Of a stretch of DNA of 31,395 nucleotides, positions 591-31,395 are shown piece by piece. Position numbers and translations under genes: made by a program. The notes below the pieces were generated by a model, which searched no databases, was not told the origin of the DNA, and worked only from the letters and a program-made list of their open reading frames with translations. Numbering within the stretch: position 1 is the stretch's first letter; each line of letters starts with the position of its first letter. Origin of the DNA: a virus (taxonomy: Duplodnaviria > Heunggongvirae > Uroviricota > Caudoviricetes); the IMG/VR virus record IMGVR_UViG_2877958089_000002. One strand, 5' to 3'.

Positions 591-623
591 AAGAGAAAAC
601 ACCAAACTTTTCTTAGTTCGGTG
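591..623 (-). terminator. Putative intrinsic terminator of the repressor transcript
   Basis: On the minus strand, about 25 nt after the repressor stop (646-648): 8-bp stem CACCGAAC/GTTTGGTG (one G-U pair), 8-nt loop, then UUUUCUCUU. Read by eye; coordinates approximate. Confidence 0.45.
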
Positions 624-645
624 CCTTAGTTAGAGAAGAGAGGTC

Positions 646-1272
646 TTAGAGTTCGTATTGAACTCCTTTGACTACACCAATGATAAGGCAATTACCATTG
701 ATAGGGATGTTGGGATACCGAGGATTTAATGGCACTAAAAACTTTTGAGGGCCATCGATGACTAATTTTTTTACTGTAGCTTCGTTTGTTCCATCAAGTC
801 GAGCGATGACTATTTTTCCATGACGAGGTTCTGCATCTGGATCTACAATCACTGTTGCGCCTTCTGGTATTGTTGGGAGGCCATTAGGGTTAGTCATGGA
901 GTCACCTTTAACCTCTAATGCAAATGAGTTATCACCAATCTTTAATGATGTATCTACCCACTTGTCCACTTCACTAAACACTTCTGCTGCCCTGCACTCA
1001 GTAAACTGCCCAGCCTGAACCCACGATATTACAGGAACTCTGCGCATGTTTGTGACGAGTTTGCCTTCAAACTCAGCACCATAAAGAATGTAATCTATTG
1101 ACGTATTGAAGAACTTCGCTAATTTCGAAAGTGCCTCCCCACCAGGGGTATTGATGTCTTTCTCCCAGTACCCCACAGCAACGTCGCTTACTCCACAAAA
1201 TTTACCCAATTCTTTCTGGGACGTTCCGGTAACTCTTCTCAGAGCTTTTATACGCTGACCAACCGTTTCCAT
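646..1272 (-). CDS. CI-like prophage repressor (N-terminal HTH, C-terminal LexA/S24 self-cleaving peptidase domain)
   Basis: 208-aa product. N-terminal HTH (QKELGKFCGVSDVAVGYWE). C-terminal S24 signature (LEVKGDSM...TVIVDPDAEPRHGKIVIARL...VKKL) with Ser/Lys dyad. Divergent from a Cro-like gene. Confidence 0.9.
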   Translation of the reverse strand: METVGQRIKALRRVTGTSQKELGKFCGVSDVAVGYWEKDINTPGGEALSKLAKFFNTSIDYILYGAEFEGKLVTNMRRVPVISWVQAGQFTECRAAEVFSEVDKWVDTSLKIGDNSFALEVKGDSMTNPNGLPTIPEGATVIVDPDAEPRHGKIVIARLDGTNEATVKKLVIDGPQKFLVPLNPRYPNIPINGNCLIIGVVKGVQYEL

Positions 1273-1294
1273 AGGAGCACCATTTCTTGAATTG

Positions 1295-1357
1295 CTAAGT
1301 AATCTTAGTTTTTATTGACCAAAGATAGATTTGTAATTAGCATCTAATAAAACTTAG
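1295..1357. promoter_or_regulatory. Immunity-region operator/promoter cluster between the repressor and cro-like genes
   Basis: Three palindromes in the 97-bp divergent intergenic region: CTAAGTAATCTTAG (~1295-1308), ATTAGCATCTAAT (~1336-1348) and CTAATAAAACTTAG (~1344-1357). Candidate rightward promoter TTGACC (~1315-1320), 17-bp spacer, TAGCAT, overlapping the last two sites. Confidence 0.45.
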
Positions 1358-1369
1358 TTTGGAGGGCGT

Positions 1370-1570
1370 ATGACAACTGACGATATCGAAAGCTACTTCG
1401 GCAGTATTGAGAAAGTTGCTGCTTTTTTCGGCATAACAACTGAAGCCGTTTATCAGTGGCGAAACCGTCCGGGCCAGTTAATTCCAAAAGGACGTGCAGC
1501 AGAAGCTGCATATAGAACTTGCGGACGGTTGCCATTTAAACCTGAGCTTTATGAAAAATCTAATGGATAA
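1370..1570 (+). CDS. Cro-like HTH regulator
   Basis: 66-aa product with HTH (IEKVAAFFGITTEAVYQWRN). GGAGG Shine-Dalgarno 4-5 nt upstream. Divergent from the repressor as in lambdoid and e14-type immunity regions. Confidence 0.75.
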   Translation: MTTDDIESYFGSIEKVAAFFGITTEAVYQWRNRPGQLIPKGRAAEAAYRTCGRLPFKPELYEKSNG

Positions 1571-2159
1571 ATCGATTAACAGAAACCACAGAACGATGAG
1601 GCTAACCGTGGGTAAGCATCACTGGAAAGTAGAAAAACAGCCTGAGTGGTACGTGAAAGCTGTCAGAAAAACTATCGCAGCGTTGCCGGGTGGTTACGCT
1701 GAAGCAGCTGACTGGCTGGATGTAACAGAAAACGCATTATTTAACCGCCTTCGTGCCGATGGCGATCAGATTTTCCCGCTGGGATGGGCAATGATTTTGC
1801 AACGTGCTGGTGGAACTCACTTCATTGCTGACGCTGTGGCGCAGTCTGCAAATGGCGTCTTTGTGTCTCTTCCTGACGTCGAGGATGTGGACAACGCCGA
1901 TATTAACCAGCGCCTGCTGGAAGTCATTGAACAGATTGGCAGTTATTCCAGACAGATTCGTTCGGCAATCGAAGACGGTGTGGTGGAACCGCATGAGAAG
2001 ACAGCAATTAACGACGAGCTGTATCTCTCAATTTCGAAGCTGCAGGAGCATGCAGCACTGGTCTACAAAATCTTTTGCATTTCAGAAAGTAATGACGCCC
2101 GCGAGTGTGCAGCTCCGGGCGCCGTGGCGTGTCGTGACTGTGGAGAAACTAACGCATGA
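1551..2159 (+). CDS. CII-like / YmfL-like early regulatory protein
   Basis: Frame open from ATG 1494, but that start overlaps cro by 77 nt. ATG at 1551 (MKNLMDKS...) or 1563 is more plausible. Position directly after cro. Family assignment is from memory of e14/lambdoid gene order, not from a search. Confidence 0.5.
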
Positions 2160-2494
2160 ACAGTTTAACAACACACTACCGTCGCTCGCAACTGATTGCG
2201 CTTCCTGTACCGGGTGGAAAAGCGAAGGTGGAGTATTGCTATGCAGTTAATGTACCAGGTGACAGGGAAATTGTAACCCACAGCTTTGCTGAGTGGGCTG
2301 TGGGTGATTTCAACCGGCAGAAGGAGACAGTCCTTTGCGACAAGTTAACCGCTGGTTCAAAGATCACTACGGAGTGCCCGTCAGAGTCATTCGTTGGGAG
2401 CCGGAAACACAACGAGTTATCTACCTCCGCGAAGGCTATGAGCATGAGTGCTTCAGCCCGCTCGAACAGTTTCGTCGTAAATTCAGGGAAATAG
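2156..2494 (+). CDS. Hypothetical early protein (112 aa), YmfM-like by position and size
   Basis: ATGA start/stop overlap with the upstream gene suggests translational coupling. C-terminal 50 aa are Ser-rich low complexity while the overlapping frame looks more protein-like (see findings). Confidence 0.4.
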
Positions 2495-2503
2495 AGGTCG
2501 GTC

Positions 2504-3445
2504 ATGAGCACTAAATTAACCGGCTATGTATGGGATGGTTGCGCTGCATCAGGCATGAAATTATCCAGCGTGGCAATTATGGCCCGCCTGGCTGATTTCA
2601 GTAATGACGAAGGTGTGTGCTGGCCATCAATTGAAACTATTGCCCGTCAGATTGGCGCGGGGATGAGTACCGTCAGGACGGCTATCGCACGGCTGGAAGC
2701 AGAAGGCTGGTTAACGCGTAAGGCGCGTCGCCAGGGTAACCGCAATGCGTCGAATGTTTATCAGCTTAACGTTGCGAAGCTTCAGGCAGCGGCATTTTCT
2801 CAACTGTCAGATTCTGACCCGTCAAAATCTGACGCATCAAAATCTGACCCGTCAAAATTTGATGCGTCGAAATCTGGCAAAAAAGCGGGTTTTCACCCGT
2901 CAGAATCTGGCGGGGATCCGTCAGTAAAATCAAAACATGATCCGTCAGATAAAAAACCTTCTCGTCCGGACGCTTCGCAACCGGACACGCAGACGGATGA
3001 ACAGGATTTTTTAACTCGCCATCCTGATGCGGTTGTATTCAGCCCTAAAAAGCGCCAGTGGGGAACGCAGGATGATTTGACCTGCGCACAGTGGCTCTGG
3101 AAAAAAATCATCGCCCTGTACGAGCAAGCCGCCGAATGTGACGGCGAGGTGGTTCGTCCCAAAGAACCGAACTGGACAGCCTGGGCAAACGAAATTCGCC
3201 TGATGTGTGTGCAGGATGGTCGTACTCACAAACAAATCTGCGAGATGTACAGCCGCGTCAGCCGCGATCCGTTCTGGTGCCGTAACGTGCTCAGCCCGTC
3301 GAAGTTGCGGGAAAAATGGGATGAGCTTTCCCTGCGCTTATCACCGTCCGTCAGCACGTACACCGAAAAACGCGAAGACCCGTACTTCAAATCCAGTTAC
3401 GACAACGTGGACTACAGCCAGATCCCGGCAGGATTCAGGGGGTGA
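2504..3445 (+). CDS. Phage replication initiation protein (N-terminal winged-helix DNA-binding domain, C-terminal replisome-organizer/DnaT-like region)
   Basis: 313-aa product. N-terminus (IARQIGAGMSTVRTAIARLEAEGWL) is a typical replication-initiator wHTH. Central region is encoded by tandem 15-bp repeats. Sits at the lambda O position. Confidence 0.65.
   Translation: MSTKLTGYVWDGCAASGMKLSSVAIMARLADFSNDEGVCWPSIETIARQIGAGMSTVRTAIARLEAEGWLTRKARRQGNRNASNVYQLNVAKLQAAAFSQLSDSDPSKSDASKSDPSKFDASKSGKKAGFHPSESGGDPSVKSKHDPSDKKPSRPDASQPDTQTDEQDFLTRHPDAVVFSPKKRQWGTQDDLTCAQWLWKKIIALYEQAAECDGEVVRPKEPNWTAWANEIRLMCVQDGRTHKQICEMYSRVSRDPFWCRNVLSPSKLREKWDELSLRLSPSVSTYTEKREDPYFKSSYDNVDYSQIPAGFRG
2807..2950 (+). 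repeat. Tandem ~15-bp direct repeats (iteron-like) inside the replication gene; candidate ori
   Basis: Repeats of CCGTCAAAATCTGAC / GCATCAAAATCTGAC / CCGTCAAAATTTGAT / GCGTCGAAATCTGGC with degenerate copies further on (CCGTCAGAATCTGG, CCGTCAGTAAAATC, CCGTCAGATAAAAAAC). They encode the DPSKSD/ASKSD peptide repeats. Confidence 0.6.
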
Positions 3446-3447
3446 TC

Positions 3448-3936
3448 ATGAGTCTGTTAAATGACGTTCAGAAATTCATTGAAGCCCATCCGGGGTGTAC
3501 TTCCGGAGACATTGCGGATGCTTTTGCAGGTTACTCACGGCAGCGCGTTCTGCAGTCTGCAAGCAAGTTACGTCAGAGTGGGCGTGTGGCTCACCGTTGT
3601 GAAGGAGATACACGCAGACATTTCCCGCGCCTGACTGAGAGAGCGCAGGAGCCGGAACCACAACCAGTTCGTGAAACCAGACCTGTGCGCAATTTCTATG
3701 TCGGCACTAACGATCCCCGGGTGATTTTGTGCCTGACCCGCCAGGCGGAAGAACTGGAGTCCAGGGGCTTATACCGTCGTGCTGCAACGGTGTGGATGGC
3801 GGCATTCTGTGAAAGCCACTCCCAGCCAGAACGAAACAATTTTCTGGCGCGTCGTGAGCAGTGTTTACGGAAAAGCAGCAAGCGCGCTGTATCGGGTGAT
3901 GAGTGGTATCTGTCAGGGAATTACGTGGGGGCTTAA
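3448..3936 (+). CDS. Putative transcriptional regulator (winged-helix N-terminus; PerC/ANR-like C-terminal region)
   Basis: Frame opens with GTG at 3442; ATG at 3448 has a GGGGG Shine-Dalgarno about 6 nt upstream. C-terminal segment AEELESRGLYRRAATVWMAAF resembles PerC-family regulators. From memory only. Confidence 0.4.
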   Translation: MSLLNDVQKFIEAHPGCTSGDIADAFAGYSRQRVLQSASKLRQSGRVAHRCEGDTRRHFPRLTERAQEPEPQPVRETRPVRNFYVGTNDPRVILCLTRQAEELESRGLYRRAATVWMAAFCESHSQPERNNFLARREQCLRKSSKRAVSGDEWYLSGNYVGA

Positions 3937-4589
3937 TGAGTAATAAATATTGCCAGGCGCTGGTGGAACTACGGAACAAACCAGCCCATGAACTGAAGGA
4001 AGTGGGCGATCAGTGGCGCACGCCGGATAACATTTTCTGGGGAATTAACACTCTGTTTGGCCCGTTTGTTCTGGATCTTTTTACTGACGGTGATAACGCC
4101 AAATGTGCCGCGTATTACACGGCGGAAGACAACGCGCTGGCGCATGACTGGTCAGAACGTCTTGCGGAGCTTAAAGGTGCTGCCTTTGGTAATCCCCCGT
4201 ACAGCCGCGCCAGTCAGCATGAGGGGCAATACATCACCGGCATGCGTTACATCATGAAGCATGCCAGTGCCATGCGTGATAAAGGCGGGCGCTATGTTTT
4301 CCTGATCAAAGCTGCCACCAGCGAAGTGTGGTGGCCGGAAGATGCAGATCATATTGCTTTTATTCGCGGGCGTATTGGTTTTGAACTGCCTGTCTGGTTT
4401 ATCCCGAAAGACGAGAAGCAGGTGCCGACAGGCGCTTTCTTCGCTGGTGCTATTGCTGTTTTCGATAAGACCTGGAAGGGATCGGCAATCAGCTACATCG
4501 GGCGCGATGAACTTGAGGCATGTGGTGAGGCGTTTCTGGCGCAGGTTCGCCAGCAGGCGGAAAAACTGGTCAGGGAGATGGCGGCATGA
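3936..4589 (+). CDS. Phage DNA N6-adenine methyltransferase (Dam-like phage family)
   Basis: NPPY catalytic motif (AAFGNPPYS). TAATG overlap with the upstream gene. ATG at 3936 is residue 12 of the track ORF. Confidence 0.8.
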   Translation: MSNKYCQALVELRNKPAHELKEVGDQWRTPDNIFWGINTLFGPFVLDLFTDGDNAKCAAYYTAEDNALAHDWSERLAELKGAAFGNPPYSRASQHEGQYITGMRYIMKHASAMRDKGGRYVFLIKAATSEVWWPEDADHIAFIRGRIGFELPVWFIPKDEKQVPTGAFFAGAIAVFDKTWKGSAISYIGRDELEACGEAFLAQVRQQAEKLVREMAA

Positions 4590-4912
4590 CGACGTTAACT
4601 CAATGCCAGCAGCAGGTGCTGGATATGCTGATTTCTTATCAGAAAGAACGTGGTTTCCCGCCAACCAATCAGGAGGTGGCAACCATGCTGGGATACCGTT
4701 CAGTGAATGCAGCGGTGGAGCATCTTCGCGCACTGGAGAAAAAAGGCGTCATCACGATAAAGCGTGGCGTGGCCCGGGGGATCACGCTTCATACCGCAGT
4801 GAAGGACGACGACAGCGAAGCGGTCGGTATCATCCGCGCACTGCTTGCCGGTGAGGAGAACGCCAGGTTGCGTGCAGCCCACTGGTTACATGAGAGGGGC
4901 TTGAAAGTATGA
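4586..4912 (+). CDS. LexA N-terminal DNA-binding-domain protein (no peptidase domain)
   Basis: 108-aa product. First ~70 aa align by eye to the LexA winged-helix domain (QQQVLDMLISYQKERGFPPTNQEVATMLGYRSVNAAVEHLRALEKKGVI). No S24 Ser/Lys domain follows. Confidence 0.7.
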   Translation: MTTLTQCQQQVLDMLISYQKERGFPPTNQEVATMLGYRSVNAAVEHLRALEKKGVITIKRGVARGITLHTAVKDDDSEAVGIIRALLAGEENARLRAAHWLHERGLKV

Positions 4913-5298
4913 AGTTGATCCTTCCTTTCCCGCCCAGTGTGAACACGTACTGGCGACACCCCAACAAAGGGGCGTTTGCTGGTAAGAGCCTGATAAGCGC
5001 GGCGGGGCGAAAATTCCAGAGCGCGGCGTGTGCCGCAATAGTTGAGCAGTTACGTCGTCTGCCAAAACCAACGTCGGCACCTGCTTCAGTGGAGATCGTG
5101 TTGTTTCCTCCGGATAACCGGATCCGCGATCTGGACAACTATAACAAGGCGCTGTTTGACGCCCTGACCCACGCGGGTGTGTGGGAAGACGACAGTCAGG
5201 TGAAAAGAATGCTGGTTGAGTGGGGACCGGTTATCCCGAAAGGGAAGGTCGAGATCACTATCAGTAAGTTCGAGAAAACGGCGGGTGCAGCCGCCTGA
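4909..5298 (+). CDS. rusA: RusA-family Holliday junction resolvase
   Basis: 129-aa product with the RusA signature (LPFPPSVNTYWRH...DLDNYNKALFDALTHAGVWEDDSQV). ATGA overlap with the upstream gene. Confidence 0.8.
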   Translation: MKLILPFPPSVNTYWRHPNKGAFAGKSLISAAGRKFQSAACAAIVEQLRRLPKPTSAPASVEIVLFPPDNRIRDLDNYNKALFDALTHAGVWEDDSQVKRMLVEWGPVIPKGKVEITISKFEKTAGAAA

Positions 5299-5317
5299 TT
5301 AAGAGGAGAAACGAAGT

Positions 5318-6127
5318 ATGAATAATCTGATGGTCATTGATGGTATTGAAGTTCGTCGTGATGCTTATGGGCGTTACAGTCTGAACGATCTGCATCGCGC
5401 AGCAGTAGCATCTGGTGCAAATGCCAGAACCAAGGAGCCAGGAAAGTTTCTTTCCAGCCAACAAACTGTTGAGCTTGTTCATGAATTGACCAACACCCAG
5501 AATTTGGGTGTTGACCCGGTGAGTGTGATTCATGGGGGAAATGAACGGGGAACGTATGTCTGCAAGGAACTGGTGTATGCCTATGCAATGTGGATCAGCC
5601 CGTCATTCCATCTGAAGGTGATCCGTACTTTCGACATGGTAACCAGCGCACCGGAAAAATTATCCGGACAGGCTGCTGACAAGATGCAGGCTGGTGTGAT
5701 TCTGCTGGACTTTATGCGCCGGGAATTAAACCTGTCTAACTCTTCAGTGCTTGGTGCCTGTCAGAAACTCCAGGAGGCTGTTGGCTTACCGAATCTGGCA
5801 CCGCGCTATGCCATTGATGCTCCTGCTGATGCACACGATGGCTCAAGTCGCCCGACACTGTCACTGAGTGCACTGCTGAAACAGTATGGTATCCGCCTGA
5901 CGGCTAATCAGGCATATCACCAGATGGTGAAACTGGGGATCGTCGAGCAGCGCGAACGATACAGCCGTACCGCGATTAACAACATCAAAAAATTCTGGTC
6001 GCTGACAGCGAAAGGCTGCATGTTCGGCAAGAACATCACCAGTCCCGCAAATCCGCGCGAGACGCAGCCGCATTTCTTCGAATCCCGATTCCCTGAGCTG
6101 TTAAAGCTGCTCGATACCGTTCATTGA
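5318..6127 (+). CDS. KilA-N domain protein
   Basis: N-terminal KilA-N-like sequence (YSLNDLHRAA...KELVYAYAMWISPSFHLKVIRTF). C-terminal half unassigned. Confidence 0.65.
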   Translation: MNNLMVIDGIEVRRDAYGRYSLNDLHRAAVASGANARTKEPGKFLSSQQTVELVHELTNTQNLGVDPVSVIHGGNERGTYVCKELVYAYAMWISPSFHLKVIRTFDMVTSAPEKLSGQAADKMQAGVILLDFMRRELNLSNSSVLGACQKLQEAVGLPNLAPRYAIDAPADAHDGSSRPTLSLSALLKQYGIRLTANQAYHQMVKLGIVEQRERYSRTAINNIKKFWSLTAKGCMFGKNITSPANPRETQPHFFESRFPELLKLLDTVH

Positions 6128-6128
6128 G

Positions 6129-7124
6129 GTGACCGTGAGAGCACTACTGACCCCTGAAATAGCCCCGCGTATGGGGATCGTATTGTTCAGACCAGGTTCA
6201 GAGCTGATGCCCCTGTTTATGCAGGGGCGTGTACTGCTGGAGCCTGAGCCGGAACGTTATTCATCTTTCGCCAGTGGTGCCGTTCCCGCGGCATCACAAC
6301 CGCTGGCGGATGATCCTGCTGTTCGGGCCGTGTTCCGCAATGAGGCAGTGATCCGTCGTGCTGGTGGCGTGGAATGTCTTGAAAGCTGGTTACTTCGTGA
6401 AAAAGGCTGCCAGTGGCCTCATTCCGACTGGCACAGCGAGAACATGACCACAATGCGACACGCTCCGGGCGCAATCCGTCTGTGCTGGCACTGTGATAAC
6501 CAGCTGCGCGATCAGTTCACGGAACGGCTGGAATCAATGGCAACGGATAACTGTGCCCGCTGGGTGTTGTCTGTTGTGCGTCGGGATCTCGGTTTTGATG
6601 ATAGTCACGTTGTGACAATGCCGGAACTGTGCTGGTGGCTGGTTCGTAATGACCTGGCGGATGCCTTACCGGAAAGTGCAGCCCGTAAGGCACTGAGATT
6701 ACCGAAGCCTGTTGTGTCGTCTGTCACCCGGGAAAGTGACCTTGTGCCTTCGGTTCCTGCCACCAGCATCATCCAGGATAAAGCGAAAAATGTGCTGGCG
6801 CTGAAAGTGGATCCTGAGTCGCCGGAGTCTTTTATGTTACGCCCAAAACGTCGCCGCTGGGTCAATGAAAAGTACACGCGCTGGGTTAAGACACTGCCGT
6901 GTGCATGTTGTGGAAAGCCTGCTGATGATCCCCACCACCTGATAGGCCACGGTCAGGGGGGAATGGGTACAAAAGCGCATGACCTCTTTGTGTTGCCTTT
7001 GTGCAGAAAGCATCACGACGAGCTGCATGCGGATACCGTGGCATTTGAAGATAAGTATGGCTCCCAGCTGGAGCTGATATTTCGTTTTATCGATCGTGCG
7101 CTGGCAACTGGCGTGCTGGCCTGA
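6129..7124 (+). CDS. Prophage protein, DUF968-like, with C-terminal Cys/His (HNH-like) motif
   Basis: GTG start. C-terminal CACCGKP...PHHLIGHG...CRKHHDELH metal-binding motif. Family name recalled from E. coli prophage annotations, not verified. Confidence 0.4.
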   Translation: MTVRALLTPEIAPRMGIVLFRPGSELMPLFMQGRVLLEPEPERYSSFASGAVPAASQPLADDPAVRAVFRNEAVIRRAGGVECLESWLLREKGCQWPHSDWHSENMTTMRHAPGAIRLCWHCDNQLRDQFTERLESMATDNCARWVLSVVRRDLGFDDSHVVTMPELCWWLVRNDLADALPESAARKALRLPKPVVSSVTRESDLVPSVPATSIIQDKAKNVLALKVDPESPESFMLRPKRRRWVNEKYTRWVKTLPCACCGKPADDPHHLIGHGQGGMGTKAHDLFVLPLCRKHHDELHADTVAFEDKYGSQLELIFRFIDRALATGVLA

Positions 7125-7141
7125 TTTTGTGGAGAAAGTTG

Positions 7142-7507
7142 ATGCGTGATATTCAGATGGTTCTTGAGCGTTGGGGGGCATGGGCGGCGAGTGACAGTTC
7201 AGGAGTAGACTATTCGCCTATAGCTGCTGGGTTTAAGGGACTTCTTCCCTATACAAGCAAAACACGTCAGGCTTGTTCAGATAGTGATGCATTAATTATT
7301 GAAGGTTGTCTTGCTCGTCTAAAGCAAAAAAGGCCAGACGAACATTCGCTTCTTGTTGCCCATTACCTATACGGTATCTCTAAAAGAAAGCTCGCCAAAG
7401 CTCGTAAAAAGGATGAGAAACTAATACGCATTGAGATACAGATGGCTGAGGGGTTTATTGAAGGCTGTCTCTCAATGCTTGATCTTTGTTTGGAAATGGA
7501 CCAATAG
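7142..7507 (+). CDS. Late-gene antiterminator Q (small Q type, as in DLP12-type prophages)
   Basis: MRDIQMVLERWGAWAA... N-terminus and AEGFIEGCLSMLDLCLEMD C-terminus are typical of small Q antiterminators. Frame opens at TTG 7127; ATG 7142 has a GGAGA Shine-Dalgarno 6 nt upstream. Confidence 0.75.
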   Translation: MRDIQMVLERWGAWAASDSSGVDYSPIAAGFKGLLPYTSKTRQACSDSDALIIEGCLARLKQKRPDEHSLLVAHYLYGISKRKLAKARKKDEKLIRIEIQMAEGFIEGCLSMLDLCLEMDQ

Positions 7508-7530: not shown

Positions 7531-7953
7531 TCAGCTTTGCGGATCGGCAGTTTCTGATGGTGTAATGTTACGCGCAGATGTTTCAAGTATAGATTCCCTT
7601 CCGATTGATACCAAAATTTCGATTGTTCTTGCTTTAGCCTGCATCAATGTTGATTTTATTTCAGGACTTAAGTGGTCAGATCGTAACTGCTTCTCAATCT
7701 CAGCCAAATCACGCTTGCATTTTGCTCTTTTGGCTGCGTCTTCTGGAGATTCGAAACCATGCCTCGAAATGAACCAATTCATGACGTAAGTTAAAGTTGC
7801 CGCAACACCCGGTACTAATGCGTAGGCTACAGTTCGCCACACGCTATTAGGGTCGGTTAAAATCGCGCTAACAAGAACACTTAAAATTGCTCCCCAACCA
7901 CCAGTTGAAAGGGTAGCTTTTCCTGTGCTTAGACCTTTAGTTTGAGAATTCAT
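7531..7953 (-). CDS. Small membrane protein (two predicted TM helices plus charged helical C-terminal tail); third gene of the antisense cassette
   Basis: 140-aa product. Hydrophobic segments GGWGAILSVLVSAIL and WRTVAYALVPGVAATLTYVMNWFI, then a K/R/E-rich helical tail. Start overlaps the upstream gene's stop. AT-rich. Confidence 0.6.
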   Translation of the reverse strand: MNSQTKGLSTGKATLSTGGWGAILSVLVSAILTDPNSVWRTVAYALVPGVAATLTYVMNWFISRHGFESPEDAAKRAKCKRDLAEIEKQLRSDHLSPEIKSTLMQAKARTIEILVSIGRESILETSARNITPSETADPQS

Positions 7954-8219
7954 TTTCGTTTTGAATTCTCCGCAATTGCCTCATCAATGAGGGTTGTTAG
8001 CATTTTTCCCTTTTTACTTGGAACTTTTATTACTAGCGTTTTGGTCACTCCGGAATCTTCATCGTGATATCGGAATTCGAAGACTTTTGTAGGGAATAGT
8101 CGACGCCAAAGCAAGGCTGACGCTGAATAGCAAAAACGACTAAAGGCAGGGATGATCATTATCACCCCTATCCAGAAGATCAGTTGTGCTATCTGCATGT
8201 TTAGTGTCACTTTTGTCAA
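7950..8219 (-). CDS. Small membrane protein (one N-terminal TM helix); second gene of the antisense cassette
   Basis: 89-aa product. TM segment IAQLIFWIGVIMIIPAF. Overlapping stop/start with both neighbours indicates an operon. Confidence 0.55.
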   Translation of the reverse strand: MTKVTLNMQIAQLIFWIGVIMIIPAFSRFCYSASALLWRRLFPTKVFEFRYHDEDSGVTKTLVIKVPSKKGKMLTTLIDEAIAENSKRK

Positions 8220-9085
8220 GCCTCAGCAGGGCGTTTTCGTTTTACTTTGGTTATAGCATACTTGGTTGTGGCATTTCGCGCAGTGAAAGTTTTTATAGTT
8301 TTTAGCTCAACAACAAACAAATCTTCTTTTGTAAAACTGATGATTCCGTTTTGAACTTGGTGTATAAACAACTGATCTTCAAAGGTAACAGCATGCTCTT
8401 CGCCTAAATAATCGATTCTCCAACCCTTTGTACCCTCGAAGTTGATCTGTACGAATCTAACATTGACTTCTTCTACAGACTCTTCTTTTTCAAGTAGTGT
8501 GCCTCTAGGCAGCGGTTTGATCTCTTCGGTTTCACTTCCTTCAAGACGAACGACTTCTTCGCCTTCATCATTCAGCACCTTAAATACTGCTCCTTGTTTG
8601 CCGTCTAATGGTGCACGAACTACATTCACAAGGGCATCACGGACTTCTGGATCTGTTACTAACTTAGCCACTGAGTCATGGCAAACAATTTCTTCCCCTT
8701 CAAGCTCAAGAACAGATTCTTCTGTTCCTGCCCGTTTTGTTACCGAAATTACTTTCTTGCTGCCCAGTTGGCGGATTAGTGATAATGCTGGAGCTCCAAT
8801 AGTAGCCCCGGCTATCCCTGTTAGGCCAATCACTTTTGCTACGTCGACGGCATGAGGAACAAGCTCCATCATCGTATAGGATACGCCGAGTGATCCCGCT
8901 TCAGCTGGATTAGTAACCATTAACTTAACGGTTTGTTGGCCGTCATTAAGTCTTTTATCAGCTGCTGATATTAAATCTGCCATCGAACCTATGGAAATGC
9001 TTAATGTTTTGGCATCAATTTTATGCTGTGCTAATTCATTATCCTCTGCATCGTAGAAGATCTGAAAAGAAGTTGTTTTAGTCAC
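8216..9085 (-). CDS. Hypothetical protein (289 aa), first gene of the antisense cassette; no recognisable family
   Basis: GTG start, with an in-frame stop 60 nt upstream and no ATG between. Gly-rich hydrophobic segment (GLTGIAGATIGAPALSL) and acidic C-terminal half. AT-rich relative to flanks. Confidence 0.55.
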   Translation of the reverse strand: MTKTTSFQIFYDAEDNELAQHKIDAKTLSISIGSMADLISAADKRLNDGQQTVKLMVTNPAEAGSLGVSYTMMELVPHAVDVAKVIGLTGIAGATIGAPALSLIRQLGSKKVISVTKRAGTEESVLELEGEEIVCHDSVAKLVTDPEVRDALVNVVRAPLDGKQGAVFKVLNDEGEEVVRLEGSETEEIKPLPRGTLLEKEESVEEVNVRFVQINFEGTKGWRIDYLGEEHAVTFEDQLFIHQVQNGIISFTKEDLFVVELKTIKTFTARNATTKYAITKVKRKRPAEA

Positions 9086-9699: not shown

Positions 9700-10752
9700 A
9701 TGAAAAATACTGTAAAAATAAACAGTGTTGATTTAATCAACGCTGATTGCCTGCATTTTATTCAGTCCCTGCCTGATGACTCCATTGATCTGATTGTTAC
9801 CGATCCGCCGTACTTCAAAGTGAAGCCCAACGGCTGGGACAATCAGTGGAAAGGGGACGAAGATTACCTGAAGTGGCTGGACCACTGTCTGGCCCAGTTC
9901 TGGCGGGTACTGAAACCAGCCGGAAGCCTTTACCTGTTCTGTGGACATCGCCTGGCATCTGATATCGAGATCATGATGCGTGAACGTTTCAACGTTCTTA
10001 ACCATATCATCTGGGCGAAGCCGTCCGGACGATGGAACGGGTGTAATAAAGAAAGCCTGCGGGCATATTTCCCCGCTACAGAGCGCGTTCTGTTTGCTGA
10101 ACATTACCAGGGGCCATATCGCGGCAAAAGTGACGATTATGCGGCAAAAGAAAGGGAACTCAAACAGCACATAATGGCACCGCTGATTTCGTATTTCAGG
10201 GATGCTCGTGCCGAACTGGGTATAACGGCAAAACAGATTGCCGAAGCCACTGGTAAGAAAAATATGGTTTCCCACTGGTTTGGTGCCAGTCAGTGGCAGT
10301 TGCCGAATGAGGCTGACTACCGGAAGTTGCAGGCACTGTTTTCCCGTATAGCGGCAGAGAAATTTCAGGAACAACAACTGGAACAACCACACCACCAGCT
10401 GGTGGCATCTTATGATTCACTGAATCGCAAATATTCTGAATTGCTGGATGAGTTTAAAACTCTCCGGCGCTATTTCTCCGTATCAGTTTCCGTGCCTTAT
10501 ACCGACGTCTGGACGTATAAACCCGTTCAGTTCTACCCGGGTAAACATCCGTGTGAGAAGCCTGCGGATATGCTCCGGCAAATAATCAGTGCCAGTAGTC
10601 GACAAGGCGATCTGGTTGCTGATTTCTTTATGGGATCCGGTTCCACAATAAAAGCGGCAATGGCGCTGGGGCGTCGGGCGTTAGGTGTTGAACTTGAGTC
10701 AGAGCGGTTTAATCAGACGGTGAAAGAGGTAAGTGAACTGGTGGGGAAATAA
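9700..10752 (+). CDS. Orphan DNA methyltransferase (N6-adenine/N4-cytosine MTase family, beta class)
   Basis: DPPY motif (LIVTDPPYF) near the N-terminus and AdoMet-binding motif (FFMGSGST) near the C-terminus. No adjacent restriction endonuclease. Confidence 0.85.
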   Translation: MKNTVKINSVDLINADCLHFIQSLPDDSIDLIVTDPPYFKVKPNGWDNQWKGDEDYLKWLDHCLAQFWRVLKPAGSLYLFCGHRLASDIEIMMRERFNVLNHIIWAKPSGRWNGCNKESLRAYFPATERVLFAEHYQGPYRGKSDDYAAKERELKQHIMAPLISYFRDARAELGITAKQIAEATGKKNMVSHWFGASQWQLPNEADYRKLQALFSRIAAEKFQEQQLEQPHHQLVASYDSLNRKYSELLDEFKTLRRYFSVSVSVPYTDVWTYKPVQFYPGKHPCEKPADMLRQIISASSRQGDLVADFFMGSGSTIKAAMALGRRALGVELESERFNQTVKEVSELVGK

Positions 10753-30565: not shown

Positions 30566-30665
30566 NNNNNNNNNNNNNNNNNNNNNNNNNNNNNNNNNNN
30601 NNNNNNNNNNNNNNNNNNNNNNNNNNNNNNNNNNNNNNNNNNNNNNNNNNNNNNNNNNNNNNNNN
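30566..30665. other. Assembly gap (100 N)
   Basis: Run of n characters. Not biological sequence. Confidence 0.98.
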
Positions 30666-30936: not shown

Positions 30937-30956
30937 TACTGTATATAAAAACAGTA
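30937..30956 (+). promoter_or_regulatory. LexA operator (SOS box) of the umuDC promoter
   Basis: TACTGTATATAAAAACAGTA, a perfect CTGT-N8-ACAG palindrome, 19 nt upstream of the umuD ATG. Confidence 0.85.
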
Positions 30957-30975: not shown

Positions 30976-31395
30976 ATGTTGTTTATCAAGCCTGCGGATC
31001 TCCGCGAAATTGTGACTTTTCCGCTATTTAGCGATCTTGTTCAGTGTGGCTTTCCTTCACCGGCAGCAGATTACGTTGAACAGCGCATCGATCTGAATCA
31101 ACTGTTGATCCAGCATCCCAGCGCGACTTACTTCGTCAAAGCAAGTGGTGATTCTATGATTGATGGTGGAATTAGTGACGGTGATTTACTGATTGTCGAT
31201 AGCGCTATTACCGCCAGCCATGGTGATATTGTCATCGCTGCTGTTGACGGCGAGTTTACGGTGAAAAAATTGCAACTACGCCCGACGGTACAGCTTATTC
31301 CCATGAACAGTGCGTACTCGCCCATTACCATCAGTAGCGAAGATACGCTGGATGTCTTTGGTGTGGTGATCCACGTCGTTAAGGCGATGCGCTGA
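30976..31395 (+). CDS. umuD: UmuD, SOS mutagenesis protein (S24 LexA-like self-cleaving subunit of DNA polymerase V)
   Basis: 139-aa product matches E. coli UmuD as I recall it ([44 protein letters not shown]...). Stop codon is the last 3 nt of the window. Confidence 0.95.

Follow-up and report, generated by a model that had tools for sequence, protein, structure and literature searches.

A phage-encoded LexA-type DNA-binding domain that lacks the autoprotease and carries a conserved, predicted helical hairpin

Introduction

What would a phage do with a LexA DNA-binding domain from which the autoprotease has been removed? The question is raised by IMG/VR record IMGVR_UViG_2877958089_000002 (Caudoviricetes), a stretch of 31,395 nt that we call the window, in which a gene between those for a Dam methyltransferase and the RusA resolvase encodes a protein of 108 residues, here the LexA-like protein. 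An initial annotation described it as the N-terminal winged helix of LexA without the Ser/Lys domain of the S24 family, uncleavable by activated RecA (RecA*), and proposed that it could occupy SOS boxes and modulate host SOS genes or prophage induction. Here we describe its domain content, predicted structure, conservation and genomic setting. We tentatively propose that it is a dimeric, RecA-insensitive regulator dedicated to the phage, which would act at a site of its own related to the LexA box.

Results

A LexA winged helix without the protease domain

The LexA DNA-binding domain family PF01726 (LexA_DNA_bind) matches residues 1–65 over all 65 positions of its model (E 2.9e-19; 69 bits against a gathering threshold of 23.7), and BLASTP aligns E. 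coli LexA with residues 1–90 at 43% identity (E 1e-21). The LexA equivalog model TIGR00498 is matched over positions 1–91 of 203 only, and its score of 70.5 bits stays below the curated cut-off of 110.95. PHROG 362 takes in the protein as a full-length member, with residues 1–108 aligned to positions 1–106 of 106 (E 1.6e-59). In an AlphaFold2 model built from a 36-sequence family alignment (mean predicted local distance difference test, pLDDT, 84), helices at residues 6–22, 28–35 and 40–52, the last being the recognition helix, and strands at 56–58 and 66–68 form a winged helix-turn-helix that is followed by a low-confidence linker at about residues 69–74. The closest solved structures are those of LexA's DNA-binding domain (1lea) and of LexA on DNA (3jso), and Foldseek superposes residues 1–68 on the DNA-bound E. 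coli LexA of 3jso with a root-mean-square deviation (rmsd) of 1.0 Å over 68 residues and 50% identity. The protein almost certainly binds DNA. A PADLOC match to CARF3 (E 3.6e-4) was dismissed as a generic winged-helix resemblance. Several proteins of 140–350 residues (P0133, P0134, P0148, P0151, P0152 and others) each have two distinct segments that match the LexA DNA-binding domain; judged from these matches, they may be tandem-domain relatives, which could read a whole operator as monomers.

Peptidase_S24 (PF00717) is absent from the LexA-like protein, in a search whose library detects the domain in both the CI-like protein and the UmuD of the window, and the chain ends 19 residues past the position aligned with the LexA cleavage site. 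Without a Ser/Lys protease domain, self-cleavage stimulated by activated RecA is therefore impossible. On domain content and on resistance to RecA-stimulated self-cleavage, the initial annotation is borne out.

A conserved, predicted helical hairpin in place of the LexA C-terminal part

Beyond residue ~69, Foldseek finds no counterpart of the LexA-like protein in 3jso. The new element is a conserved helical hairpin at residues 75–103, predicted with confidence (pLDDT 87–89). Relatives of only 40–50% identity, from Cronobacter, Atlantibacter, Salmonella, Klebsiella and Enterobacter, retain this tail, with the pattern EAxxhhRxLhxxxxxARxRAxxxL, in which A97 never varies in the family alignment and A93 and L101 hardly do. 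Kept among relatives so distant, the tail is no leftover of a LexA hinge in decay. To read a palindrome, a winged-helix protein requires a dimerisation module, and the dimer interface of LexA lies in its S24 part, which is missing here. Given this need, the hairpin is probably a family-specific dimerisation module, standing where LexA has its hinge, cleavage loop and S24 domain.

DNA-contact residues depart from LexA at position 44

LexA contacts DNA through S39, N41, A42, E44 and E45 (PMC3091678), and the role of Glu44 in reading DNA is taken from that work together with its conservation, as nine of the ten S24-bearing LexAs among the retrieved proteins have Glu at this position. The LexA-like protein retains four of the five contacts and has Val at position 44. 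Across the 36 aligned family members, S39, N41 and the wing residues R64-G65-I66 are invariant, while position 44 is V, A, T, N, L or F and never Glu; most groups have E or D at position 45, and others L, I or G. The resulting 44/45 pairs (VE, AE, TD, ND and LL) go by subfamily and differ between genera. Enterobacteriaceae have one common SOS-box consensus. The loss of E44 throughout the family and the variation of residues 44 and 45 by genus, set against this uniform host box, argue that the family is not a simple copy of LexA specificity, with CTGT-type half-sites still possible; the same pattern fits phage-specific sites that co-evolve with the protein. On the occupancy of SOS boxes that the initial annotation proposed, the sequence evidence points both ways.

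A widespread gene under purifying selection

Of 5426 complete E. coli genomes, 2233 (~41%) carry a near-identical gene, named 'LexA family transcriptional regulator' by NCBI or 'LexA family protein'; the PHROG 362 label is 'transcriptional repressor'. At least 50 phage records carry it, including SfV (orf42), SfII, SfIV, mEp460, cdtI, Ayreon and Stx2a, Stx2c and Stx2k phages, and relatives of 105–135 residues occur in prophages of Salmonella, Citrobacter, Cronobacter, Atlantibacter, Klebsiella, Raoultella and Enterobacter. A full-text literature search returned catalogue mentions of the enterobacterial family and no functional study; one such entry is pham 237, 'LexA family transcriptional regulator, pfam01726', of 15 Stx phages (PMC8136144).

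Among 81 copies from related loci, 54 distinct DNA alleles encode only 10 protein variants, and the ratio of nonsynonymous to synonymous polymorphism (pN/pS) is 0.048 (pN 0.005, pS 0.10). These data support the reading frame and show the gene to be under strong purifying selection.

Gene order is kept as well. In each of the six genera examined, the gene sits in a slot between the replication genes and Q, in the recurrent order replication gene, PerC, DNA methylase, LexA-like gene, RusA, antirepressor-type gene, DUF968 and Q, with small changes in Klebsiella and Enterobacter. DUF968 lies one to four genes downstream of the LexA-like gene in every genus examined, and RusA accompanies it in all but the Klebsiella type. 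The methylase slot upstream is conserved in position, although its genes are not orthologous: by genus it holds a PF05869 Dam, a PF02086 MethyltransfD12 enzyme or a PF00145+PF02086 fusion (positions 5829–7004 in locus L087, 5110–5991 in L091, 934–3243 in L092, 5167–5991 in L093 and 3903–4589 in the window).

An early-right gene in a co-inherited block

The features of the locus are collected in Table 1. As initially noted, the window encodes a cleavable CI-like repressor, which combines HTH_3 and Peptidase_S24 with the QAG, GDSM and Lys motifs. No promoter-like site was found before the LexA-like gene, and the intergenic gaps within 1600–7100 are all at most ~20 bp. From this arrangement, and by analogy with the nin regions of lambdoid phages, we infer that this delayed-early ('nin-region') gene shares the transcript of the early-right operon, which would be made once the phage has infected a cell or been derepressed. 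The idea that the protein modulates SOS genes in the quiescent lysogen is weakened by this embedded position, which points to lytic expression instead.

Table 1 Features of the LexA-like locus in the window
Feature	Positions	Strand	Basis
CI-like repressor (HTH_3 + Peptidase_S24; QAG, GDSM, Lys motifs)	646–1272	-	Domain search
Small Cro-like open reading frame (ORF)	between 1272 and 1494	+	
CII-like gene	1494–2159	+	
Co-inherited early-right block: cII-like, O-like, PerC, Dam, LexA-like, RusA, KilA-N, DUF968	1600–7100	+	
O-like initiator, with iterons	2504–3445	+	
PerC/YfdN	3442–3936	+	
Dam N6-adenine methyltransferase, phage type, upstream operon neighbour	3903–4589	+	PF05869
Shine-Dalgarno-like GGGAG, 8 nt before the ATG, within the 3' end of the Dam gene	4573–4577	+	Read from sequence
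ATGA overlap of Dam stop and LexA-like start (translational coupling)	4586–4589	+	Sequence
LexA-like gene (108 residues; LexA DNA-binding domain + helical tail)	4586–4912	+	ATG start; PHROG 362
LexA-type winged helix, residues 1–68 (S39, N41, A42, E45 kept; E44 to Val)	4586–4789	+	Pfam, BLASTP, model, superposition
Predicted helical hairpin, residues 75–103 (helices 75–88 and 93–103)	4808–4894	+	AlphaFold2 model, family alignment
ATGA overlap of rusA start and LexA-like stop (translational coupling)	4909–4912	+	Sequence
RusA Holliday-junction resolvase, downstream operon neighbour	4909–5298	+	PF05866
KilA-N	5318–6127	+	
DUF968	6129–7124	+	
Q	7127–7507	+	

To see what travels with the gene, we compared IMG/VR loci, 45 in all, with complete 7-kb flanks and a protein 99–100% identical to that of the window. 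The block at 1600–7100 is common among them, with 40–85% of its 13-mers found in other loci in most 100-bp bins. The immunity region of the window (600–1500) occurs in only 13% of these loci, and its Q gene and the region after it in 0–5%. An invariant protein among swapped immunity and late-control modules argues against the prophage operators, or one particular late promoter, as obligatory targets. The operators near the CI-like repressor are moreover CTAAG-N4-CTTAG-type palindromes, not CTGT boxes; given this and the free exchange of the immunity region, we rejected them as a target, and the binding to prophage operators that the initial annotation had envisaged is unlikely.

The O-like gene contains iterons (GTCAAAATCTGAC), five to six palindromic 13-bp repeats with a 15-bp period at 2792–2953, which presumably serve as the phage origin. 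Cronobacter and Atlantibacter prophages have the same iterons, and different repeats are found in Salmonella and mEp390 relatives. As a target of the LexA-like protein the iterons were rejected, since the Cronobacter and Atlantibacter phages that share them encode LexA-like proteins with different recognition helices.

A three-gene cassette on the minus strand (7531–9085; 289, 89 and 140 residues) lies between Q and the late region and is absent from all 45 loci compared. Its 289-residue product matches the PADLOC candidate defence family PDC-S42 (E 8.9e-33).

The umuDC junction

The window ends in a umuD ORF (30976–31395) preceded by a canonical SOS box, TACTGTATATAAAAACAGTA, at 30937–30956 (18 of 20 consensus positions), and the initial annotation had the prophage abutting umuDC. 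A run of exactly 100 N at 30566–30665, most likely a scaffold join, separates the truncated tail-fibre-assembly gene from the region upstream of umuD. The junction of prophage and umuD occurs in none of the complete E. coli genomes, and other carriers lie at other sites, such as beside a dusA fragment in strain G5. Because of the gap and the missing junction, the adjacency is unproven; it is no property of the family, and we set it aside as a functional clue.

SOS boxes around the family

Two perfect CTGT-N8-ACAG sites occur in the window: the umuD operator and TACTGTAAAAATAAACAGTG at 9708–9727 (16 of 20 positions), which spans codons 3–9 of a late-region N6/N4 DNA methylase gene (9700–10752). 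The LexA-like gene is present in 27 of the 28 phage records that have this methylase 5' end. Strain G5 has the identical box, as does the 85%-identical Citrobacter phage phiNP, which has neither the LexA-like gene nor rusA, and the box is found in 18 of 80 IMG/VR carrier loci, many of which have limited downstream flank. The methylase box was rejected as a dedicated partner on these grounds, and its distribution fits linkage to the LexA-like gene, not dependence on it. With up to one mismatch, 19 CTGT-N8-ACAG sites occur in the window against 11.3 +/- 2.8 in dinucleotide shuffles (0 of 100 reach 19), an excess that is hard to read because the shuffles ignore codon usage and CTG and CAG are common codons.

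Further boxes lie in related phages. One stands within a CI-like repressor gene (TTACTGTTTTTATATACAGTA), and TTACTGTTTTTATATACAGTATTAC, or a variant ending in ...TTTTTACATACAG, was seen inside a 230-residue CI-like gene at ~4098 in locus L005, ~3447 in L024 and ~2543 in L031, as well as in 15 further IMG/VR loci. Others are upstream of minus-strand moron genes in L014, L071 and L003. In L041 (~7768) and L076, the box GATACTGTATTTATGAACAGTG occupies a 160-bp gap between rusA and KilA-N, a gap that measures 19 bp in the window and has no box there; this placement suggests a LexA-controlled antirepressor-type gene right after the LexA-like/rusA pair in those two loci.

The gene itself follows a box in two genera. 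In the Klebsiella loci L084–L086, an SOS box at 6385–6404 (18 of 20) is followed on the same strand by dinI, an ORF and the LexA-like gene, and in Enterobacter L095 (box 5564–5583) and L096 (box 1607–1626) by an ORF and the LexA-like gene; the boxes of this Klebsiella and Enterobacter subfamily score 18/20 or 16/20. Judged from these arrangements, direct SOS induction of the LexA-like gene is possible in the prophages of both genera. Such boxes are a real link between the family and SOS control, which keeps the SOS idea alive, and they are silent on what the protein binds. In the Salmonella relatives L091 (5986–6001) and L092 (3238–3253), a CTGT-N8-ACAG core, CTGTAGGAGATGACAG, overlaps both the start codon of the LexA-like gene and its Shine-Dalgarno sequence; the spacer of this core is GC-rich, and the core may be there by chance.

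Comparison with known systems

The closest characterised analogue, and the one characterised phage-encoded truncated LexA homologue that we found, is gp6 of the Bacillus thuringiensis tectivirus GIL01 (Fornelos et al. 2018; PMC6182141). This protein binds a distinct palindrome, GaCACA..TGTGaC, at the -35 of the late promoter P3, which it activates; site and activator role were established experimentally, gp6 does not bind LexA boxes, and repression in GIL01 falls to host LexA together with gp7 (PMC6182141). Compared by description, gp6 and the LexA-like protein are both early, truncated LexA homologues of temperate phages that lack the autoprotease, and they stand at similar distances from the LexA DNA-binding domain (~44% identity of gp6 to that of its host, 43–50% here). 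They differ in build and setting. While gp6 consists of the DNA-binding domain and a 14-residue extension, the LexA-like protein adds a conserved 30-residue helical hairpin, and while gp6 comes from a linear tectivirus that lacks a phage repressor and infects a Gram-positive host, the LexA-like gene lies in a lambdoid nin region alongside a cleavable CI-like repressor and Q. The activity of gp6 was measured, whereas the present family is known here from sequence and predicted structure. For a co-inherited late-promoter palindrome of the gp6 type, no candidate site was found, and the late-promoter region differs among carriers.

With host LexA (1lea, 3jso), the protein shares the fold, ~50% identity over residues 1–68 and the residues S39, N41, A42, E45 and R64-G65-I66. 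It differs in having no hinge, cleavage loop or S24 domain, in the change of E44 to Val, in a TIGR00498 score under the cut-off and in the need for another dimerisation element. LexA-domain-only phage proteins of 65–150 residues are also numerous among the predicted structures of BFVD, where entries called 'LexA repressor DNA-binding domain-containing protein' (for example from Mycobacterium phage Wildcat and uncultured Caudovirales; PHROG 362, 24920 and 3502) have the same winged helix and no protease. Most such homologues have 65–90 residues and lack the C-terminal hairpin, and our searches found no functional characterisation of any of these BFVD proteins. The kind is thus already known, and the present family adds to it the conserved helical hairpin and the lambdoid nin-region setting.

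Discussion

We read the LexA-like protein, at somewhat less than an even chance, as a dimeric, RecA-insensitive regulator dedicated to the phage, with its own site related to the LexA box. A winged helix (residues 1–68), a short linker and the hairpin (75–103) would make up a small LexA-derived regulator that activated RecA does not inactivate, with the hairpin supplying dimerisation in place of the hinge, cleavage loop and S24 domain. Translated by coupling between Dam and RusA, it would be made after infection or once the CI-like repressor has been inactivated. The dimer would then bind its own palindrome, kin to the SOS half-site CTGT but altered where Glu44 of LexA reads DNA, and, like GIL01 gp6, control transcription of the lytic programme instead of substituting generally for host LexA.

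Several points weigh against this reading. Dimerisation, timing and binding are all deduced, from sequence and from a predicted model. No candidate operator was found, and the co-travelling block at ~1600–7100 has no intergenic DNA, such that a phage-borne target would have to be intragenic or common to many modules. Changes in the recognition helix are not matched by changes in the replication iterons. The four retained contact residues are, in turn, compatible with true binding to SOS boxes.

This last point leads to the principal rival, in which a dimer formed through the tail would bind canonical SOS boxes and, proof against RecA, re-repress SOS genes of the host and of its own and rival prophages after LexA has been cleaved. 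We regard it as possible but on the unlikely side. It draws on the close match to the E. coli LexA DNA-binding domain (~50% identity, 1.0 Å rmsd, with S39, N41, A42 and E45 kept), and the invariance of the protein while immunity and late-control modules swap fits a host-borne or generic target. The free N-terminal fragment of LexA reportedly keeps some repressor activity and is removed by ClpXP, which we count on the same side. Carrier phages are also rich in good SOS boxes (in the methylase gene, CI-like genes, the rusA/KilA-N gap and upstream of moron genes), and in Klebsiella and Enterobacter the gene itself stands downstream of a box that matches 18/20 or 16/20 positions, and dinI accompanies it in Klebsiella. 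Yet Glu44 is never kept and residues 44 and 45 vary among genera that have one SOS box, a different dimerisation module need not space the half-sites by N8, phiNP has the identical methylase box without the gene while only 18 of 80 carrier loci have that box (with the limits on downstream flank given above), and gp6, the sole characterised analogue, does not bind LexA boxes. Bolder still is the proposal that a RecA-proof LexA replacement, made from the early operon or, in Klebsiella and Enterobacter, from an SOS promoter shared with dinI, switches host SOS genes and those of rival prophages off during lytic growth; this we consider rather unlikely.

Three further explanations take the protein away from transcription or from function altogether. 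It could be a DNA-binding accessory of the linked recombination and replication functions (RusA, the HNH-like DUF968 protein, the O-like initiator), for instance targeting or tethering them to DNA, as the tight translational coupling to rusA, the steady company of DUF968 and RusA described above and a winged helix weakly similar to DnaD/O-like initiator domains would allow. The C-terminus of the DUF968 protein weakly resembles HNHc_6 (E 7e-6) and the RecA-dependent nuclease family PF16786 (E 0.007), and this resemblance also counts in favour of an accessory role. We think such a role improbable, because nin regions are gene-dense cassettes whose order need not mean common function, the iterons are identical in phages with different recognition helices, and the initiator-like matches (E 0.01–0.1) are far weaker than the LexA match (1e-19). 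A decoy, cut in trans at A88-G89 by the S24 domains of LexA, UmuD or CI-type proteins or competing on activated RecA, is suggested by a LexA alignment that continues to residue 86 and places A88-G89 near the Ala84-Gly85 cleavage site of LexA (VAAGE vs LLAGE). Against this, relatives both near and far have Asn or another residue in place of G89 (LLANE, MVEGE, LLNGD, MIAEE) and the segment is predicted to be a helix, not the LexA cleavage loop; we rejected A88-G89 as a cleavage site and hold a decoy to be very improbable. That the gene is a functionless, decaying remnant of a captured lexA would account for its truncated look and the partial TIGR00498 match, but has next to no chance of being right: the pN/pS of 0.048 over 54 alleles, a tail conserved at 40% identity, synteny in six genera and presence in 41% of complete E. 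coli genomes effectively refute it.

The gene is carried by this large share of complete E. coli genomes, and by Shiga-toxin phages, SfV/SfII serotype-converting phages and cdtI phages, under strong purifying selection. If the protein binds SOS boxes, it would be a phage tool that overrides the host DNA-damage response, with a bearing on mutagenesis, on the induction of prophages and toxins by antibiotics and on prophage competition, and if it indeed replaces LexA in a RecA-proof form, a phage-borne factor that shuts off SOS would be present in ~40% of sequenced E. coli. If, as we tentatively favour, it acts like gp6, it would represent a second, independent conversion by phages of LexA's DNA-binding domain into a regulator of their own, and would add to lambdoid phages a layer of control beyond CI, Cro, CII, N and Q.

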